A DNA stretch of 64,000 nt from Eledone cirrhosa (Eukaryota), in the NCBI GenBank assembly GCA_964016885.1, contig OZ024744.1, forward strand, positions 33,108,001 through 33,172,000. Reading direction: 5' to 3'. This document shows positions 5,976 through 60,295 of this stretch, piece by piece. Below the pieces are notes generated by a model. The model was given only the letters and a program-made list of their open reading frames with translations, was not told where the DNA came from and did no database searches. Both the position numbers and the translations under genes were made by a program. Numbering within the stretch: position 1 is the stretch's first letter; the number at the start of each line of letters is the position of its first letter.

Positions 5976-6020
5976 AACGATGTACTAGTTTCAAGCTTGT
6001 TAGCTATCATCAGCACCGTT
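5976..6020 (-). ncRNA. Minimal type I hammerhead ribozyme (second tandem copy)
   Basis: Identical to 5469-5513. Confidence 0.85.
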
Positions 6021-7133: not shown

Positions 7134-7465
7134 TATGTGTATGGCAGGGATGTGGAATGACCCAGACCTACCTAAAATAAATCAACGTGTCTTACATATA
7201 GTTATTTCGTTTCATCCTCAAAATATTTCATTTGAGTTAGCTGCTAGTAAAACTTCTGTAAGTGACTGTATTTGATAATAATCAATGTTTATTTAGTTTT
7301 TTGCTAAAAGTTTTCAGTAAAGGTTTTCATCGAACAAATGGCAACCCTGATCTAAACACACCGCCAGGTGGTGTGATTTTGTCACAGTTTATTTAAAATA
7401 TCATAGTATTTTATCATATTACTATAATAGTTTTCACATATGTTCTCATTACTTATCTGATATCA

Positions 7466-7873
7466 TGGCCCGCCGACGAGACACTGCATAGCTATGTGGC
7501 CCACCGACGAGACACTGCATAGCAATGTGGCCCGCCGACGAGACACTGCATAGCAATGTGGCCTGCCCATGAGACACTGCATAGCTATGTGGCCTGCCCA
7601 TGAGACACTGCATAGCTATGTGGCCTGTCCATGAGACACTGTATAGCTATGTGGCCCGCCGACGAGACACTGCATAGCTATGTGGCCCACCGACGAGACA
7701 CTGCATAGCAATGTGGCCTGCCCATGAGACACTGCATAGCTATGTCGTCCGCCGACGAGACACTACATAGCAATGTGGCCTGCCCATAAGACACTGTATA
7801 GCTATGTGGCCCACCGACGAAACACTGCATAACAATGTGGTCCGCCGACGAGACACTGCATAGTTATGTGGCC
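7466..7873. repeat. 31-bp minisatellite, ~13 units
   Basis: Unit GTGGCCCGCCGACGAGACACTGCATAGCTAT, with a GTGGCCTGCCCATGAG variant. Confidence 0.9.
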
Positions 7874-8452
7874 ATCACACCCTAAAAATGTTGCCGACAC
7901 CTGTTAAACTCACAAAGTATTTCGACAAAGAAGGTATGGGTATATTAATGGGTGTTTTTGTTTATCTGAAAATCACCTAGAGGTGCCCATTGAAATTCCG
8001 TTTAATGTTTTCTGGGCTGTTTTTATTGTTGTTGATATTTTTTGTTGTTCAATAGCCACCGGCCAGCCGTAAGTTCGAACATCAATGACTCAACTTGTCC
8101 CAGTCTGACTAGAATATTCTTCCCGTAGATTGTGGTCACCATTATAAAATGTATGTCTTTCTTTCTTTGTGAAGCAAATTTGTTAAACACGTAGCTATGT
8201 TTGCGATTGTGTAAAAAGGAAATATCCGAAACAAACACACACACACACATACACAGAGCCCTCCGCCCTACACATACACATATACAGACACAGAGACACG
8301 GGACAGACTCAGAGACACGGGACGGGCACACACACAGATACACACAGAACCCCTCCTCCCCCCACACACACACATACATACACACACACACGTACACACA
8401 CGGACACAGAGACACGGGAAAGGCACAGACACAGAGATACACACAAACCCAC

Positions 8453-20150: not shown

Positions 20151-20744
20151 ATATATATATATATATATAGTTTTGCGAGGTTTTTTATATGAAATCGTGT
20201 GTCGAAACAGATATTGTTATATTTGGGGAGGGTCATATTTGCGTAATATTGCCAGAATTAATAACAGAACACACTCACTGTTTGGTTGGTTTTCGCTTCT
20301 CGCTGTCTTTTATATATATATATCTGCGATCTAACTTACTCGGTCCTCAATGTTGCCATTGACTGACCGGCGGTCAAAAATAATACAGATACAATATAGA
20401 CAAACACATATATATATAGTTTACATAATTTACATAAATCTTTCGTTGCACATCTGCAACATCGTCAGTGGTGTTATATTCATTGTTCCTCCTGTTGTGT
20501 TGTATGTCTACGCCATTTTTTTTTTTTTGTTCAGTCTGTCTATATATTTATTTATTTATTTGCTTGTTTGTTTATCTTATTTTATTTTGTCTTCTTTGCG
20601 CGTGCGTTTGCGTGTGTGTATAGTGTTATGTGTGATGTGTGACTAGTGTGTATAGTGTTGTGTCTGCTGGGTGACTAGTGTGTGTTTATGTGCTTGTGTA
20701 TGTATTTATTTATCTTATTTATTTAATTTAATTTACTTATTTAT

Positions 20745-23356
20745 TTATACTTCTCTTAGGTCAGTGTTGTTTGTTTGGGTGTTGTTGTTGTTCCACTCAT
20801 TCTTTCTGTTTAGCTTTGGTCTTCTAATTTCTATTTCACTGGCCTCTCTGATTTGCCTATCTGCTGGGTCATTCCTATGTTTAGATATTATTCTAATTTC
20901 TATGTTGTCTATGTTACCGTCATGTTGTTGTCTAGCATGTTCGTATAGTACTGACCCGTTTTTTCGTCCTTTTAGTTCCCCCCAGTGTTGGTCTATCCTT
21001 TCACCTATGCTACGAGCTGTCTCACCTATGTATGTTGTTGTCGTGTTTCTGCAAGTACCCTCTGTACATCTTATGCTATAGACTACGTTTCTAGTTTTAC
21101 AGTTTATCCGGGGGTTCACCTTACATATGATACATTTCCTATTGGTACAGTGGGTTTTCTTAAAAGGGTAGGTTTTGCTGATCAGGGATTTTATGGTGGT
21201 TCCTGGCTTTTCTACCACCTTTATTTTTAAGTGGGTCTTTCTCAGGGCCTTTCTACACTGGTTAGCTAATTTCCCTCCAGGGGTGGCGTCCACAAACATG
21301 ACACTCTGATATCTCTGGTTGTCGTACCATGATGTGGCCTTCCCTATCTTATGTCTAGCCCTATCTAAGCTATTCCATGATTTGCTCCTGTATAGTGGGC
21401 AAATTCCTTTCATGTCCAGTTCTATGAGGGTCTTATACTTTTCCATGGCTCCTTCGTATACTCTGACTCTGTCTCTTTGGTTGTAGCCAGAGAACTGCAT
21501 GCGGTTGATGAAGTGTTGGATGTGTCCTTCCATTTCTGTTGGGTCGCACATGCTGGACACATTCTTCATCACTCGTACCAAATCTGCGATCAGAATATTA
21601 AACTTAGCACTACTCTGACATTGCTGAGTTTTTGAGTATCAGGTATTTGGAGGCCATGGGTTTAGCATAGTGTGAGTGGAGAATTTGGGCTCTCTCGTCT
21701 ATAGTGTTAATCCAGAGTTCTGTGTCTAATACAGGTAGTGTATTGTTAGGGTGTTTGGAAGGGAAGTCTATAGTTACAGTTATACTCTGGTGTATGGAAT
21801 TAGCTATCTGCTGGATGCTTTCCATCGTGCTACGTTCTAAATCAAACTTGTTAGTGCTCTCTAGTGGGGGTGTTCTTATAGCTATATTGATATCGTCTAC
21901 ATAACGAGAGTACATGATGAGGTCTATGGAGCTTTCATTAAGGAGATCTTTAAGTCTCCTTTCCCACCATACCATGAAAAGGTTGGCAACATCACCAGCT
22001 ATGCTGACGCCGATGGCTGCTCCCTCATTTTGGGTGTAGATTTTCTCATTGAACTTAAATATGTGGCCCTTTAGGGTAGTTTTGATACTAGCCCCTTATT
22101 GCATGTGCGACCATTTTTCTTACCTGATCAGTGTTTTGGGGGGTCCGTATAGCTTTGGTCCACCCAATCCACCTTCCTATGGGAGTCTTTTTAGCCATTG
22201 AGGTTATGATGGGGGGTCTACCTCTTATAGGTCTACTAGGGCAGAAACATCTAAGGTCATGGCTGTCTAGGTAGTCAGTGTCGTAGGTAAGTCTAAGTAG
22301 GAGGCCCAGTTCGTCTGTGTCGACGTCGCAGAACTCCACCTCACTCTCAATGATCATCTCCACACATCTTTTCACAGCAAAATCAATGTTAATGGATGGG
22401 TACAGTGACACCACATCCATGCTGCCTATTATGCAGTTGGATAGGCTCCTGTTTTTGTTGCACTCACTGATTCTGCTGAGGAGGTCCTCTGTACTTTCAC
22501 ATACATCTGGGGACATCTTGATTATGGGGCGTATAACCATTGAGAGGAAGTAGGAGATCCTGTAGTTGCTAGCTATATTAGCTCCGCATACGGGTCTTGT
22601 TGGTGGTCCTGTTGTCGGGTCGTCGACTGTCTTGTGGTCTTTGCGGAGCCCATACAAGGGTGGTATGCCATTGTTAGACGCCTGGAAGTTGTTGGCAGTG
22701 CGTCTGCTTGGCTTTAGGATGTCAGTCCACATCATCATGTGAGCGTTGAGGATTTTTTCTCTCCCATCGTGTGTTAGTTGTGCAACTTCGCTCGTGTTGG
22801 TGATGTGGGGTTGCATTGCCTCGATGTAGTTCGGCATGCTATCTATTGACATCCTACCAGACTTATCTGTGGGTAGACACACTACCTCACCATCCCTTGT
22901 GCGCTGCTTGAGGCTAACCAAGCCTTCTACAGGTTTTATCCCAAGTTGTTGGGCCTCTGGTCTGCTCTGTCTCATAGTGTACCTGTCTACTACTTGTCTA
23001 ATCTTATTTCTAGCTATGGTGAACTGTGCCTCCGTCTCGTCATCTATTTGCTGTGGTATGCAAACTCTTTTATTAAAGGGTAACCTCGTAGGATAGATAT
23101 TACCCATCTTATATGTTTTGTCAGCTGGGTTGAAAAATAGTTTCTCTAAGGGGTTGTCGTTATTTCTATCGTCATAGTTGTGTGTGTTGCTATTATTGTT
23201 ATCATGGTGGTTGTTGTTGTTTCTATCATTAGCATTAATATTATTATTGTTATGATTGCTAGATGTATTGTTGTTTACTTCACCGTTATTGTTGTTGTTG
23301 TTACTGCTATTTCTACCATTGTGGTTGTTACTATTATTATGTTTCTTGTTTTTGTT
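20745..23356 (-). pseudogene. PLE RT-GIY-YIG ORF, 5'-truncated, two frameshifts
   Basis: Mirror of the plus copy, extending 99 bp further into the Asn-rich N-terminal region. Confidence 0.9.
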
Positions 23357-25869
23357 AATCATAACAATAATAATATTAATGCTAATGATAGAAACAACAA
23401 CAACCACCATGATAACAATAATAGCAACACACACAACTATGACGATAGAAATAACGACAACCCCTTAGAGAAACTATTTTTCAACCCAGCTGACAAAACA
23501 TATAAGATGGGTAATATCTATCCTACGAGGTTACCCTTTAATAAAAGAGTTTGCATACCACAGCAAATAGATGACGAGACGGAGGCACAGTTCACCATAG
23601 CTAGAAATAAGATTAGACAAGTAGTAGACAGGTACACTATGAGACAGAGCAGACCAGAGGCCCAACAACTTGGGATAAAACCTGTAGAAGGCTTGGTTAG
23701 CCTCAAGCAGCGCACAAGGGATGGTGAGGTAGTGTGTCTACCCACAGATAAGTCTGGTAGGATGTCAATAGATAGCATGCCGAACTACATCGAGGCAATG
23801 CAACCCCACATCACCAACACGAGCGAAGTTGCACAACTAACACACGATGGGAGAGAAAAAATCCTCAACGCTCACATGATGATGTGGACTGACATCCTAA
23901 AGCCAAGCAGACGCACTGCCAACAACTTCCAGGCGTCTAACAATGGCATACCACCCTTGTATGGGCTCCGCAAAGACCACAAGACAGTCGACGACCCGAC
24001 AACAGGACCACCAACAAGACCCGTATGCGGAGCTAATATAGCTAGCAACTACAGGATCTCCTACTTCCTCTCAATGGTTATACGCCCCATAATCAAGATG
24101 TCCCCAGATGTATGTGAAAGTACAGAGGACCTCCTCAGCAGAATCAGTGAGTGCAACAAAAACAGGAGCCTATCCAACTGCATAATAGGCAGCATGGATG
24201 TGGTGTCACTGTACCCATCCATTAACATTGATTTTGCTGTGAAAAGATGTGTGGAGATGATCATTGAGAGTGAGGTGGAGTTCTGCGACGTCGACACAGA
24301 CGAACTGGGCCTCCTACTTAGACTTACCTACGACACTGACTACCTAGACAGCCATGACCTTAGATGTTTCTGCCCTAGTAGACCTATAAGAGGTAGACCC
24401 CCCACCATAACCTCAATGGCTAAAAAGACTCCCATAGGAAGGTGGATTGGGTGGACCAAAGCTATACGGACCCCCCAAAACACTGATCAGGTAAGAAAAA
24501 TGGTCGCACATGCAATAAGGGGCTAGTATCAAAACTACCCTAAAGGGCCACATATTTAAGTTCAATGAGAAAATCTACACCCAAAATGAGGGAGCAGCCA
24601 TCGGCGTCAGCATAGCTGGTGATGTTGCCAACCTTTTCATGGTATGGTGGGAAAGGAGACTTAAAGATCTCCTTAATGAAAGCTCCATAGACCTCATCAT
24701 GTACTCTCGTTATGTAGACGATATCAATATAGCTATAAGAACACCCCCACTAGAGAGCACTAACAAGTTTGATTTAGAACGTAGCACGATGGAAAGCATC
24801 CAGCAGATAGCTAATTCCATACACCAGAGTATAACTGTAACTATAGACTTCCCTTCCAAACACCCTAACAATAGACTACCTGTATTAGACACAGAACTCT
24901 GGATTAACACTATAGACGAGAGAGCCCAAATTCTCCACTCACACTATGCTAAACCCATGGCCTCCAAATACCTGATACTCAAAAACTCAGCAATGTCAGA
25001 GTAGTGCTAAGTTTAATATTCTGATCGCAGATTTGGTACGAGTGATGAAGAATGTGTCCAGCATGTGCGACCCAACAGAAATGGAAGGACACATCCAACA
25101 CTTCATCAACCGCATGCAGTTCTCTGGCTACAACCAAAGAGACAGAGTCAGAGTATACGAAGGAGCCATGGAAAAGTATAAGACCCTCATAGAACTGGAC
25201 ATGAAAGGAATTTGCCCACTATACAGGAGCAAATCATGGAATAGCTTAGATAGGGCTAGACATAAGATAGGGAAGGCCACATCATGGTACGACAACCAGA
25301 GATATCAGAGTGTCATGTTTGTGGACGCCACCCCTGGAGGGAAATTAGCTAACCAGTGTAGAAAGGCCCTGAGAAAGACCCACTTAAAAATAAAGGTGGT
25401 AGAAAAGCCAGGAACCACCATAAAATCCCTGATCAGCAAAACCTACCCTTTTAAGAAAACCCACTGTACCAATAGGAAATGTATCATATGTAAGGTGAAC
25501 CCCCGGATAAACTGTAAAACTAGAAACGTAGTCTATAGCATAAGATGTACAGAGGGTACTTGCAGAAACACGACAACAACATACATAGGTGAGACAGCTC
25601 GTAGCATAGGTGAAAGGATAGACCAACACTGGGGGGAACTAAAAGGACGAAAAAACGGGTCAGTACTTTACGAACATGCTAGACAACAACATGACGGTAA
25701 CATAGACAACATAGAAATTAGAATAATATCTAAACATAGGAATGACCCAGCAGATAGGCAAATCAGAGAGGCCAGTGAAATAGAAATTAGAAGACCAAAG
25801 CTAAACAGAAAGAATGAGTGGAACAACAACAACACCCAAACAAACAACACTGACCTAAGAGAAGTATAA
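23357..25869 (+). pseudogene. PLE RT-GIY-YIG ORF, 5'-truncated, two frameshifts
   Basis: RT motifs LYGLRKDHK, RPVCGA, SMDVVSLYPSI, QNEGAAIG, YSRYVDD, LPVLD. Cys linker CTNRKCIIC. Endonuclease NVVYSIRC...YIGETARS...RQIREA...LNRKNEW. Frameshifts at ~24520 and ~25002. Confidence 0.9.
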
Positions 25870-26137
25870 ATAAATAAGTAAATTAAATTAAATAAATAAG
25901 ATAAATAAATACATACACAAGCACATAAACACACACTAGTCACCCAGCAGACACAACACTATACACACTAGTCACACATCACACATAACACTATACACAC
26001 ACGCAAACGCATGCGCAAAGAAGACAAAATAAAATAAGATAAACAAACAAGCAAATAAATAAATAAATATATAGACAGACTGAACAAAAAAAAAATGGCG
26101 TAGACATACAACACAACAGGAGGAACAATGAATATAA

Positions 26138-26181
26138 CACCACTGACGATGTTGCAGATGTGCAACGAAAGATTTATGTAA
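26138..26181 (+). ncRNA. Minimal hammerhead in the Penelope pLTR (mirror at ~20430-20473)
   Basis: CTGACGA-T-GTTGCA GATG TGCAAC-GAAA-GATT-TA. Stem I is weak in this copy. Confidence 0.65.
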
Positions 26182-45066: not shown

Positions 45067-45102
45067 GAAATGTTTTCTTATTGTCATTGTATATATATAT
45101 AT

Positions 45103-46127
45103 ATACAACAAGTTATGAAATGAAAGGAGCTGTGTGGTTACCAAAAACAAGGTGGTTAGGACGGAACAGGAGAAGAAAGGAAGAAAGGAGTTTCCATCGT
45201 CAGCTGTAAATGTTTCCCGAACCGATGTTTCGGCGTTGAATTACAGGACATCGGTGTAGTTCGGGTGCACCCGAGGCCTTTTATTAATCAAAAGGCCAGG
45301 TGGAAAAGGAGAGAGAAAGGGAGAAAAAAGGGGAGAAAAAAGGAGAGAGAAAAGGAAAGAGGGGGAAAGAAGGAAGAACAGAGGGGAGGGAGAGGATGAA
45401 AGGGGGAAGGGAAAGGGGAAAATACGAAAGGAATAGGAGAAAAAAGTGTACAGGTCCCATCGTGGGAAGACACAGGTGAAAGAAACATGCAAAAGAGTAA
45501 CCGTGGAAAAATAGGGAAAGTAAGTTGTGGCCAACCTGGGAGACTTTAGCCTGGTGGTCAGCTACGACTCAGAGCTGGTATGATCGTGCTGCCTCTCCCA
45601 TCGACAGGAGAAAGTGAGAGAGAGACACGGGCAACCAAGAGTGAGGAGGAGAAGAGAAAGGGAGATAATCCAGAAGGTTTTTTTAACGACGGTGGTAAAA
45701 ACGTGCCGCAAAGATTGCGGACAGAGAGGCCACCACGCCACGTGTAAACATGTCAACAATCAAAACCGAACGGATGGATAGAAAGAGAGAGAGTGGGAGA
45801 GAAAAAAACGAGAGTGAGGAGAAGGGAAGAGAGAAGGGAGGGTCGATGCGAAAGTGTGGAGGGAACACGATCGACCAAAGCAGGTAGTGTCACTGCGGTA
45901 AATACAACAAGTTATGAAACGAAAGGAGCTGTGTGGTTACTAAAAACAAGGTTTAGAATGGTGGTTAGGACGGAACAGGAGAAAGGAAGAAAGGAGTTTC
46001 CATCGTCAGCTGTAAATATTTCCCGAACCGATGTTTCGGCGCTGAATTACCGGACATCGGTGTAGTTCGGGTTAATCAAAAGGCCAGGTGGAAAAGGAGA
46101 GAGAAAGAGAGAAAAAAAGGGGAGAAT

Positions 46128-46130
<3 letters not shown>
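45103..46130 (-). mobile_element. ORF-less ~800-bp unit with ~230-bp direct repeat carrying permuted hammerhead
   Basis: 45103-45345 is repeated at 45902-46125; (TA)n on both sides. Confidence 0.75.
45187..45265 (-). ncRNA. Candidate non-circularly permuted hammerhead (second copy 45993-46071)
   Basis: ACCGATG-TC-CTGTAA..CC-GAAA-CATCGGT..TTACAG-CTGACGA-TGG. Confidence 0.6.
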
Positions 46131-46182
<52 letters not shown>

Positions 46183-47960: not shown

Positions 47961-48944
47961 ATGTATATATGTATGTATGCATGTATGTATGTATGGATGT
48001 ATGTGTGTATATATATATATGTATATGTATGTATATGCATGTATGTATGTGTGTTCATGTGTGTGTGTTTTGAGGGTATGTGCGCATATATATATATATT
48101 CTGATCTGACCTACTTGCGGGAAATTTAGCTTTGTTAAGAGATAATAGAACATTTTTAAAGGCTTTTGTTCGTCTTTTAGTTTAACCGATAATTGACCGG
48201 AGAATATTAGCTAGTTATTCTTTCTATCGTTATATTTTACTTTCTCTGCGTTGGCTTTGACGGATTATTGCATTCTTTTGGACGTCAAGATAGGTAAATC
48301 AGGATTTCGTTAATTTTGCAAATCTCTGATTGCGTGATTGATCTTGTTTGAACACGTTTCGCATTCGTCTGTATATATCATATTCATTTGTATGTAAATA
48401 ATGACATTGATGTCTACCTTTTGCGTCGCATTTTGTTAACGTATTTTCTGATACCATATTTATACTTTTCATCTTGGATTTATTTGGTTTATTACTTCAA
48501 TGGCTTAGGTATTTTCTTGGTTTTCATTATTTTTTGGTTTTTGATGTTATGTTGTGAGAACTAGATTTCCTGATGTGCAGCATCACATCATCTAAGTGGA
48601 TAGTTTGAGGGTTTAAAGTTGAAAAAGAACGGGAGGAGGTGGATTACGGCTTATTACGTAATGAGGTCGTAGTCGTTCCAGATAATAATACCTTTGGCTT
48701 TATTATATAGAAACTACGGAATAAGACAGCTGCAACTTAAATACACCTCCCTTCTCCATTAGGTGGATATTGCGGTCCGATTGCGTGAGCTGAGTTTGGG
48801 AGAATGGTTGGTCCACGTTTGATTTGCTGAATTTGGGGGATGATTACAGTTTATATGACAGGAGTCATGGGTACAGGTTGGTGTTAGGTTTAGTGTGTTT
48901 GCTGAGGGCTAGTAGATTGATGGGAGCAATAACGAACTTCCTCC

Positions 48945-49620
48945 AGCAGACAACTGATGAAGGAAAATGTTCTCCTGTTCTTGCTTTCCTCTTTTTATAA
49001 GTACACCATATCCAGCAACCACGCAGCCCCTTTATTCTTAAATTTGTATCAAGTTTCGCTGTGACCTATCCTCTCTTTCTCACTATCTATTTTGTTGCTA
49101 TCAACTCTTCCCCCTTTCATCCTCTCCCTTTCTCCCTCTCACTTTCACTCTCTCCCTCTCTGCAAGCCCCTTCACTGTTCTCTCGCCTGTTCCTCTAGCT
49201 GTCTCTTTCTCACTCTCGCGGAGGTCAGACGTGTTTTTTTTTCTCGTCCACACAAATCTCGAACTTAAGTTCAGCAATTGATGTTGACTTTAATTTTTCT
49301 CTCTTTCTTACAGTTACTCACATACATGTGCTTCGGGTTTCCCTCTTCGACTTGTTGTTTCCCTTTTTTTTTCGCTGTTTTTTTTCCTTTTTCTTTTCTC
49401 TTCCCATCTGTTACTATTTCTTCTCTCACTTTCCCTTTTTTTCCCCAATAACTTCCTTGAGTTATTGACGCCCTGGGGTGAGACATATTGTCTTTAATGG
49501 GTTGAAATGTCCCAAACCCGCAGAAGACAACTGGTGAAGGAAAATGTTCTCCCGTTCTTGCTTTCCTCTTCGTATAAGTACACCTTATCCACCAACTACA
49601 CAGCTCGTTGATTCTTAAAT
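48945..49620 (+). mobile_element. ORF-less 577-bp unit with ~95-bp direct repeat carrying permuted hammerhead
   Basis: 48948-49043 is repeated at 49525-49620; CT-rich interior; ends in (TA)n. Confidence 0.7.
49475..49552 (+). ncRNA. Candidate non-circularly permuted hammerhead
   Basis: GACA-TA-TTGTCTTT..GAAA-TGTC..GAAGACAA-CTGGTGA. The upstream repeat has intact CTGATGA at 48954. Confidence 0.55.
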
Positions 49621-49644
49621 ATATATATATATACATACATATAC

Positions 49645-49716
<72 letters not shown>

Positions 49717-49893
49717 TTAAAGGTTAAACAAGGTTCAATGAATAAATCAAAGAATGAGTTTTACAAAAGATTGGAAGCACTCAACAGCAATGGTTTTCCG
49801 GAGTTATTAATATTAATTTAAAATATTAACAAAATTAACTACCATGACTGAATCTTAACCATCTACCATGTCAGGGTATGTCATGCATCATCT

Positions 49894-58677: not shown

Positions 58678-59016
<339 letters not shown>

Positions 59017-59020
<4 letters not shown>

Positions 59021-60295
59021 GAAAGTAAAACAAAGAAGCCTTCAATATATCAAAAGTCTTTATTAGCCGACAATGTTTCGTCCTATTAAGGACTCATCAC
59101 TCATCCACATGCATCCACCAACCTTCACTCATCACTCATCCACACTCATCCACCAACCTTGTAATTATAAGTAATTATATATTATATTATGTTAATTATT
59201 TTATATAATATATTATATTATATAGTATTTTTTATTGTAATATTGATCCTTATTACTTACCGTTAATTATATGTAACATTATGATGTTAAACTTTATATA
59301 TCATGTAAGATGTTTGTATTTTTTGTACCATCATAATTTTTGGGTATTGTACAATTTATTTTTCCTCACCTACTCTGTAACCCAATATGAATTGATTTGT
59401 TAACTTGAGTACCATTATATATTGTTTATTATAAATGTTAGTATATTGTATATTATAAATGTTAGTATATTATTATTATATTATTATTGTGACATCTATA
59501 TTGTTTGTGTAAATTAACCGGAGATTATCTATTCTATTATATTATATTATATAGTATATTATTGTATTGTTCATTATTTATTATATGTACTACTTATAAG
59601 TATATCATATTATTACCTCATGTATATTGGGTAGATGTATTAGTATTATTATTATTATTATTTTCATTCCTATCATGCTTATTTTTATATTCAAACTCTT
59701 AATAAGGTTTAATTTGTGCAGTTGAAGATGGATATGTGTATTGTTGTATGTGTATGTGTGTGTACGTGTGAGTACATATATACATATGCATATTGTACCT
59801 TTTGATTTTTATTGTGATTTTAATATTGGTAAAGCTATATTATATTATATTACATTGTATTATATATAATTTCTGCTCTATATAACCACCTTTGTTTAGC
59901 TCTAGGTTTTTTTTGCTTTGGACTATATTTGTAATATGGTTCTTAATGTTATATACATCCTTAGTAATTTTTATTATATATTTTTATTATTTTTATTATA
60001 TATTTTTACCCATAATCTTGCAATACTTTAGTGTATGTACACTCCATATTCTTCGGAGCTTCCGGCTTGTATCTGCCGATAATACTTCTTGTTGTTTTAA
60101 TTGCCCTGATGAGTCCTTAATAGGACGAAACATTGTCGGCTAATAAAGACTTTTGATGTATTGAAGGCTTCTTTGTTTTACTTTCTTAATTTCTTAATTT
60201 TTCGGCTCTGTTTAACTACATTGAGCTATACCTTTTACTGTAATTTCTATAATACGAAGAGGGTGTTTAACTCCAACACGCTCCAGTATTTTAAC

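Follow-up and report, generated by a model that had tools for sequence, protein, structure and literature searches.

A rearranged hammerhead core with a predicted upstream stem II in non-coding, Penelope-type repeats of an animal genome

A short repeat in the 64,000-nt stretch of DNA studied here (the window), part of a microsatellite-rich animal genome of 3.0 Gb, carries the conserved pieces of a hammerhead ribozyme in an unusual order. Could these pieces form one catalytic core, which strand would complete stem II, and how does the repeat spread? The initial annotation had proposed a class of non-autonomous retroelements defined by a rearranged hammerhead, and the motif that it quoted is present letter for letter at 49476-49553 (+).

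The core and its damaged copy in the window

Along the RNA the strands follow one another as Xa, P0, IIa, stem III extension, IIIb-UH^Ib (the caret marks the predicted cut), IIb-GAAA-IIIa, Ia-CUGANGA and Xb, so that the block with the cut site (S) precedes the blocks with GAAA (G) and CUGANGA (C) (Table 1). In family 2, to which the window copy belongs, each of the core residues C3 U4 G5 A6 N7 G8 A9, G12 A13 A14 A15.1 and U16.1 H17 is found in 27-31 of 31 copies, a count in which G12, A14 and U16.1 were preset by the anchoring pattern. Across families C3, U4, G5, A6, G8, A9, GAAA and U16.1 are kept, and N7 (U, C or A) and H17 (A or C) vary, as they do in hammerheads generally, whose numbering we use. 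Stems I and III flank the cut site and covary. They are 100% paired over 22 distinct rows of families 2 and 3, in agreement with the UUGUC/GACAA and UGUC/GACA pairings proposed at the outset, and cleavage is still predicted, from sequence, to occur after 49487.

Other parts of the first description did not carry over to the families. The 8-bp stem I is specific to this copy, as 4 of 31 distinct copies of family 2 have the pair 49494-49524 and the stem of the family has 6 bp; the gggUU/aaaccc helix needs a base peculiar to the window (pair 49500-49518, formed in 1 of 31 family-2 copies); and the trailing GGA..UCC hairpin, put forward as a common element, is not retained in family 3. This hairpin was also considered as a candidate for stem II and rejected.

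Table 1. Features of the family-2 copy and neighbouring elements in the window
Feature	Position	Strand	Remarks
Family-1 element	45095..46140	-	same architecture present twice (C3 at 46009 and at 45203), 806-nt unit
Old Naiad-like element, 3' UTR and 3' end	48096..48935	+	family-2 copy at its terminus
Family-2 element	48940..49619	+	non-coding, pyrimidine-rich, partial tandem truncated at the 5' side, ~1.2 of the 577-nt units, (TA)n at end
Truncated upstream unit	48940..49049	+	stem I 3' strand, tail, intact CUGAUGA at 48954-48960; S and G blocks absent
Helix X, 5' strand	49440..49445	+	predicted partner 49539-49544, directly after core
Hairpin P0, 8 bp	49446..49467	+	between helix X and stem II strand
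Upstream stem II strand	49467..49471	+	predicted partner 49499-49503, 5' of GAAA
Stem III extension, 5' strand	49473..49478	+	predicted partner 49518-49523
Block S	49482..49493	+	stem III strand GACA, U16.1, A17, predicted cut 49487/49488, stem I strand
Block G	49499..49511	+	stem II strand, GAAA 49504-49507, stem III strand
Block C	49525..49544	+	stem I strand, core CUGAUGA (window: CUGGUGA), helix X 3' strand
AC-rich motif	49594..49604	+	common to families 1-4, about 15-40 nt 5' of the fixed 3' end
(TA)n microsatellite	49619..49717		at 3' junction, insertion target

The core is complete in family 2 but not in the window copy, which has A6G at 49534, a position occupied by A in 29 of 31 distinct family-2 copies. 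Two pairs are broken as well, one in stem II (49470-49500, now G.G) and one in the stem III extension (49476-49520). In helix X five of the six pairs form, and P0 and position 10.1 compete for G49467. Judged by its sequence, the window copy itself is probably inactive as a ribozyme.

The initial annotation had noticed a GACAA-CUGAUGA 577 nt before the motif, which we confirm (C3 at 48954 and 49531), and had suggested that it could complete the ribozyme. That upstream core and its stem I strand are indeed intact, but they belong to a 5'-truncated second unit, 87% identical to 49521-49626, and truncation points are scattered in the families. Moreover, the local, mutated strand gives the longer stem I (8 versus 6 bp), and stem II and the stem III extension of the window copy are broken too, which makes completion across 577 nt very improbable. 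The motif could also reflect chance complementarity or a misread ordinary type I hammerhead, given its short stems, the AT-rich genome and the many type I hammerheads present. Against this, a descriptor of stems I and III in S-G-C order, which detected 99 distinct cores in 1.75 Mb of genome (a set enriched by preceding searches), gave one match in 15 dinucleotide shuffles of 790 kb and none in 122 viral control loci, all with GAAA before CUGANGA. With the full junction described below, it gave none in either control. The type I order C-G-S, which each unit of a type I or non-LTR retrozyme would have, gave 0 fits in loci L001-L030, where none uses the family-2 CUGAUGA, as the initial annotation had expected. 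A type I fold across tandem units was rejected, as it needs three units. The proposal of a non-circular rearrangement is supported; the covariation, with 13 two-sided changes, largely refutes chance or type I origin, and we find either hardly credible. The motif is absent among the 150 of 196 matches listed in an Rfam scan of the window.

Stem II, helix X and the junction between them

Four helices had been missed in the first description: an upstream stem II, helix X, hairpin P0 and the stem III extension. The strand before GAAA is complementary to a strand upstream of the cut site, with different sequences in each family (upstream/pre-GAAA strands GACGC/GCGUU in family 2, UCGCA/UGCGA in family 3, GGCGC/GCGCC in family 1 and GUGCA/UGCAC in family 6). 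The strand directly after the core is complementary to one still farther upstream, forming the putative helix X (UUUUCC/GGAAAA, UGGUCC/GGACUA and UUUCCA/UGGAAA). In the resulting model, A9 would be connected to position 10.1 through helix X and hairpin P0.

For families 2 and 3, represented by 22 distinct rows, 94.7% of the 770 cells over 35 pairs are paired, compared with 29-46% for slid partners in the same rows; these counts come from related sequences and do not represent independent events, so that shuffle figures for them cannot be read as probabilities. Between families 2 and 3, both partners differ in 13 of the 35 pairs, and family 3 has no broken pair; the covariation between families originally claimed is thereby supported. 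Helix X is paired in 84.8% of cells and shows two-sided changes at four of six pairs in these two families. Hairpin P0 is paired in 96.6%, with two-sided changes in the alignments of families 4 and 5, and the stem III extension in 96.2%, with such changes at five of six pairs between families 2 and 3. Each of the five pairs of the upstream stem II forms in 24-30 of 31 family-2 copies. In a five-family alignment of 32 distinct rows, made by a model that contains neither stem I nor stem II and is therefore fitted to neither, stem I is 94.8% paired (five of six pairs with two-sided changes) and the upstream stem II 76.7% (three of five). Overall, the upstream-strand stem measures 4-6 bp and covaries; it is imperfect in family 5.

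A stem II of the published type, between the strand after CUGANGA and the strand before GAAA, is paired in 46.6% of cells in families 2 and 3, and amounts to 2 bp in family 2, a single pair in family 3 and, if a bulge is allowed, 2 bp in family 1. Position 10.1, which in a hammerhead belongs to the R10.1-Y11.1 pair of a stem II stacked on the core, would be supplied by the upstream strand as a G in family 1 and in published Naiad elements, and by the post-core strand as an A in families 2 and 3.

ViennaRNA gave helix X, P0, the extension and stem III probabilities of 0.88-0.99 in seven of eight family-3 rows. In its nested folds, helix X reached 0-0.37 in family-2 copies versus 0.94-0.97 in family 3. 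The full junction fits 63 of the 99 distinct cores, distributed as 36 of 41 cores in the family-3 groups, 17 of 26 cores of family 1 and 10 of 19 cores in the family-2 groups. It fits none of the ten cores of family 5, with its two mismatches adjoining the core and a possible 3-bp stem II of the published type, and none of the three of family 6, where hairpin P0 is absent. We also counted, family by family, how often shuffling yields a 5-bp stem II together with a 6-bp helix X anywhere upstream. The rate was about 6% for families 1 and 3 and 9-49% for the five remaining groups tested; the best copy of family 2 gave 0 of 500. By itself this test is weak for most groups, and the case for the junction therefore rests on register and covariation.

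Families, insertion pattern and the mobilising enzyme

Six families with the rearranged core were found in the genome, two of which (5 and 6) lack a full junction fit. A query with 49440-49620 returned 1,899 first-look candidates, which is not a copy number; the 40 that were scored have 85-100% identity. The third family turned up unprompted in a flank, through the descriptor of stems I and III. Families 4, 5 and 6 came from random stretches, through a covariance model of families 2 and 3. Of 40 such stretches of 10 kb, 5 contained matches at E<1e-5, 6 in all, and a further 39 contained none. The model misses family 1, and the census of families is partial. In family 3, no difference separates the 40 scored copies over the 124 nt on the 3' side of the cut site, and locus L120 contains a tandem of at least four whole units. 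An array of near-identical family-3 units, each ~530 nt, runs from L120 (G000:C15:29892548-29895723) to ~29900113. Further diverged subfamilies with the same architecture and an AC-rich tail occur at L072:9823-9967 (-), L111 near 1459 (-) and L203:2675-2799 (+).

The units measure ~510-810 nt; that of family 2 (~580 nt) is dispersed, non-coding and inserted in (TA)n. They occur as monomers, partial tandems and arrays, as retrozyme-like units do. Among the 26 family-2 loci listed, 24 end at a common tail beside a microsatellite and two run into another unit. Thirty family-3 copies were selected solely on the 124 nt that follow the cut site; every one ends in (TA)n, and their 5' truncation points are scattered over 47-935 nt 5' of the cut site. 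None of the 30 has its 5' end at the cut site, where a footprint of cleavage would lie. The 3' end is fixed ~130 nt downstream of the cut site, and the AC-rich motif near it is a candidate signal for recognition or initiation by the reverse transcriptase (RT). Fixed 3' ends, scattered 5' ends, partial tandems and TA targets match the insertion pattern of Penelope-type elements, and the non-autonomous class proposed initially is supported. On the plus strand the element lacks ORFs, as claimed at the outset, except for a pyrimidine-rich frame of 56 codons; on the minus strand a frame of 143 codons begins within the (TA)n tract.

An autonomous Penelope-like element (PLE) sharing the repeat, which the initial annotation had suggested looking for, did not emerge as a young copy. 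A degenerate DKA pattern (4 matches) and two protein searches returned decayed Naiad-like remnants only. The RT matches scored (82 of 82 and 150 of 1,344 candidates) all look old, with a best identity of 75-81% to the query and mostly with stops. The scored family-3 copies, in contrast, are identical in 40 of 40 cases over 124 nt, so that a current mobiliser was not recognised among those RT matches; the enzyme moving the young families might belong to another PLE clade. No copy among the loci listed bears an ORF, and a search with the AC-rich 3' motif returned no ORF-bearing element. When the model of families 2 and 3 was applied to 44 loci with remnants or 3' UTRs, there were 6 matches with E up to 2, none assignable to a remnant's own 3' end. 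A Pfam search of four remnant fragments gave nothing above the cut-off, so that it is the DKA motif, along with a resemblance by eye to the published octopus Naiad protein, for which they are labelled Naiad.

The DNA at 48096..48935 shows 66-83% homology to DNA downstream of decayed Naiad-like RT remnants, and this element and the family-2 copy at its end are separate, unrelated insertions. The old 3' UTR itself contains a hammerhead-like S-G-C remnant at about 48668-48743 (+) with 6-bp and 7-bp stems, and has homologues in L180-L203. Its core has U3...A8 in most of 31 copies, the natural compensatory form of the hammerhead C3-G8 pair, and is followed by a helix of 5 bp similar to the interaction stem of published SGC ribozymes.

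Other hammerheads and repeats were noted elsewhere in the window. The Rfam scan marked a type I hammerhead at 60100-60144 (+), and other repeat families contribute further type I hammerheads, canonical or minimal, at 6013, 5506, 13992, 46428, 10832 and 18126 (all -). At 20519-26095 a perfect 2,739-nt inverted repeat with a 99-nt spacer contains Penelope-type RT-like sequence and has type I hammerheads near its ends, at 26143 (+) and 20468 (-); it is either an inverted PLE insertion or an assembly feature. A palindromic stretch at 58860-58960 has CUGAUGA-type cores on both strands, at 58911 (+) and 58904 (-), with related type I motifs at L300 and L314. A 31-nt minisatellite at 7404-7935 has at least 12 overlapping register copies.

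Related ribozymes, Naiad elements and the reading of the motif

The S-G-C order, which the initial annotation had not linked to a published class, is that of type-SGC hammerheads (HRIMA-1, SGC variant), which run site-GAAA-CUGANGA (Eckert et al. 2023, PMC10085705). According to the available text of that paper, these ribozymes cleave in vitro at 0.007-0.19 per min and occur in metatranscriptomes only, none having been found in the genomes of known organisms; text and alignment rows pair the post-CUGANGA strand with the pre-GAAA strand as stem II. Our motif shares with type SGC, as described there, the order of the blocks, the full core, mutually pseudoknotted stems I, II and III, as well as a short linker from stem I to the pre-GAAA strand. 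It differs in that helix X and hairpin P0 split block C from stem II, whereas the blocks of type SGC are assumed to be unbreakable, and in being chromosomal, within an animal retroelement. The post-CUGANGA stem II pairs poorly here; the motif works like SGC yet is not classed as a member of the type.

Animal non-LTR retrozymes (reportedly treated by Cervera and de la Pena 2020) are another close comparison. Like these, the present families consist of non-coding units of a few hundred nt with one hammerhead each, ranging from monomers to tandem arrays; unlike them, they are not defined by type I hammerheads. The available text of a recent preprint (bioRxiv 10.64898/2026.07.22.740005) proposes that such retrozymes, with type I hammerheads, derive from or depend on PLEs. 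The pipeline it describes searches type I models alone, so that the families reported here would escape detection. A further parallel is offered by PAc, a lizard Penelope/Poseidon element, for which the available text of Frangieh et al. 2024 (PMC11167929) describes a start of reverse transcription within the RNA, in an AC-rich region downstream of the hammerhead, and the use of an uncut template. Hammerhead mutants had no effect on insertion in vitro, and cutting needed protein (PMC11167929). Our families resemble PAc in their AT-rich target and the AC-rich region 3' of the hammerhead, a parallel drawn here from genomic ends alone, and differ from it in that PAc is autonomous and has a canonical hammerhead.

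The link to Naiad elements had also gone unnoticed in the initial annotation. Naiad PLEs use (TA)n targets, and in the available text of Craig et al. 2021 (PMC8557442) no canonical hammerhead is reported for them, although some contain a core or half core fitting no descriptor. In the supplement of that paper we recognised, by eye, the whole architecture 3' of the ORF, in the 3' UTR, of at least 9 of 54 Naiad consensus records. This is a lower bound, since line breaks may hide core matches; the matches considered were CTGATGA 1-7 and 17-46 of 62, CTGACGA 1-21 of 23, CTGAGGA 1-21 of 25 and CTGAAGA 1-7 of 43. The fitting records are three near-identical ones from Acropora, a hydrozoan one (Clytia by file order), Naiad-2_Movir (by order; flagged HHR_core), Naiad_Plae, Naiad_EuTe, and Naiad_Ovul (flagged HHR_half_core) with the record preceding it, Naiad_Obim by order, helix X having 4 bp in both of the latter. 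They represent six lineages in four phyla and have unrelated helix sequences. Stem II, as far as these records go, would have 4-6 bp starting from G10.1-C11.1, and in several of them X, P0 and II abut without a spare base. Judged by eye, Naiads from Acropora, an acanthocephalan, a clam shrimp and a hydrozoan have a post-core strand that pairs in helix X and cannot pair with the pre-GAAA strand.

Squid and ctenophore records and one arthropod match near part 17 of the supplement fit partly; ostracod-range matches and the nematode records did not fit by eye, and most bivalve records have no core match among the matches listed. The nematode records (parts 13-16) contain C-G-S hammerheads with long stem II inserts, and Naiads, to judge from these parts, may use more than one hammerhead form. 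With Naiads our families have in common the form of the rearranged hammerhead, the partial tandems and the insertion into (TA)n; they differ in being non-coding, Naiads being described as encoding EN-RT in 3.4-4.4 kb. No sequence homology was found between family 2 and any Naiad ORF element, and the octopus Naiad motif, searched as an exact pattern, had 0 matches in the genome. Among the loci listed, family 2 showed neither an ORF with an N-terminal GIY-YIG and an RT with the DKA motif nor sequence descent from an element that has one. The link is thus only one of shared RNA architecture, and we call family 2 Naiad-type, not Naiad.

Could the motif be an ordinary type-SGC hammerhead, with a stem II of 1-3 bp from the post-CUGANGA strand and upstream helices that are accessory or an off-state? 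A post-core A-U at 10.1-11.1 is available in 30 of 31 family-2 copies and an adjacent G.U in 31 of 31, and family 5 has its possible 3 bp; the single pair of family 3, the bulge in family 1, the low overall pairing and the Naiads in which the post-core strand is occupied (by eye, in the records available) all speak against it, and we give this account a small chance. The structure may instead be selected but have negligible self-cleavage, as a protein-binding or packaging element for a Penelope-type RT or as a site of protein-dependent cutting. The lack of genomic 5' ends at the cut site is in line with this, as is the behaviour of the PAc mutants in the text cited above. On the other hand, the catalytic residues are fixed over six families and four phyla while N7, H17 and the stems vary, as expected under selection for catalysis, and we regard this account, too, as unlikely, though not negligible.

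We consider it likely that the window holds a damaged copy of a non-coding family with a complete S-G-C core and a predicted stem II completed from upstream, whose intact copies probably cut themselves 3' of the position of 49487 and are probably copied in trans into (TA)n by a Penelope-type RT that is probably Naiad-related. The bridge of helix X and P0 implies that such a ribozyme could form only after the core, its last part, is transcribed. In a read-through or internal transcript, the nested scaffold of X, P0 and III would fold first; stems I and II would then dock as pseudoknots, and the core would assemble after CUGANGA and Xb are made, with the cut falling after H17. Tandem transcripts would thus yield monomers of 510-810 nt, possibly circularised. 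A PLE protein may nick (TA)n and begin synthesis ~130 nt 3' of the cut site, continuing past it. Since insertions run through that site, the template would be an uncut precursor or a religated circle, and copying from uncut or circular RNA could give rise to the truncated monomers, partial tandems and arrays.

Beyond this locus, we lean slightly towards a broader reading, in which a four-strand hammerhead outside the six three-block permutations, with A9 and 10.1 joined by a helical junction and stem II completed from upstream, is active and ancient and is common to Naiads, from cnidarians to molluscs, and to thousands of non-autonomous copies. In the literature that we searched, with subscription journals largely outside its scope, there was no permuted hammerhead in an animal genome and none with an upstream stem II. 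If the reading is right, this would, within that literature, be the first non-circularly permuted ribozyme in known eukaryote genomes. The assumption on which existing descriptors are based, that CUGANGA is inseparable from its stem II strand, would be broken. RNA engineering, too, would gain a useful scaffold in a hammerhead that cannot fold until its last strand exists and that has a free hairpin next to its core. For invertebrate genomes, an undercount of ribozyme-bearing repeats is implied, and for Naiads the motif bears on the stated puzzle that they proliferate without canonical hammerheads: it may be the ribozyme that they were thought to lack.
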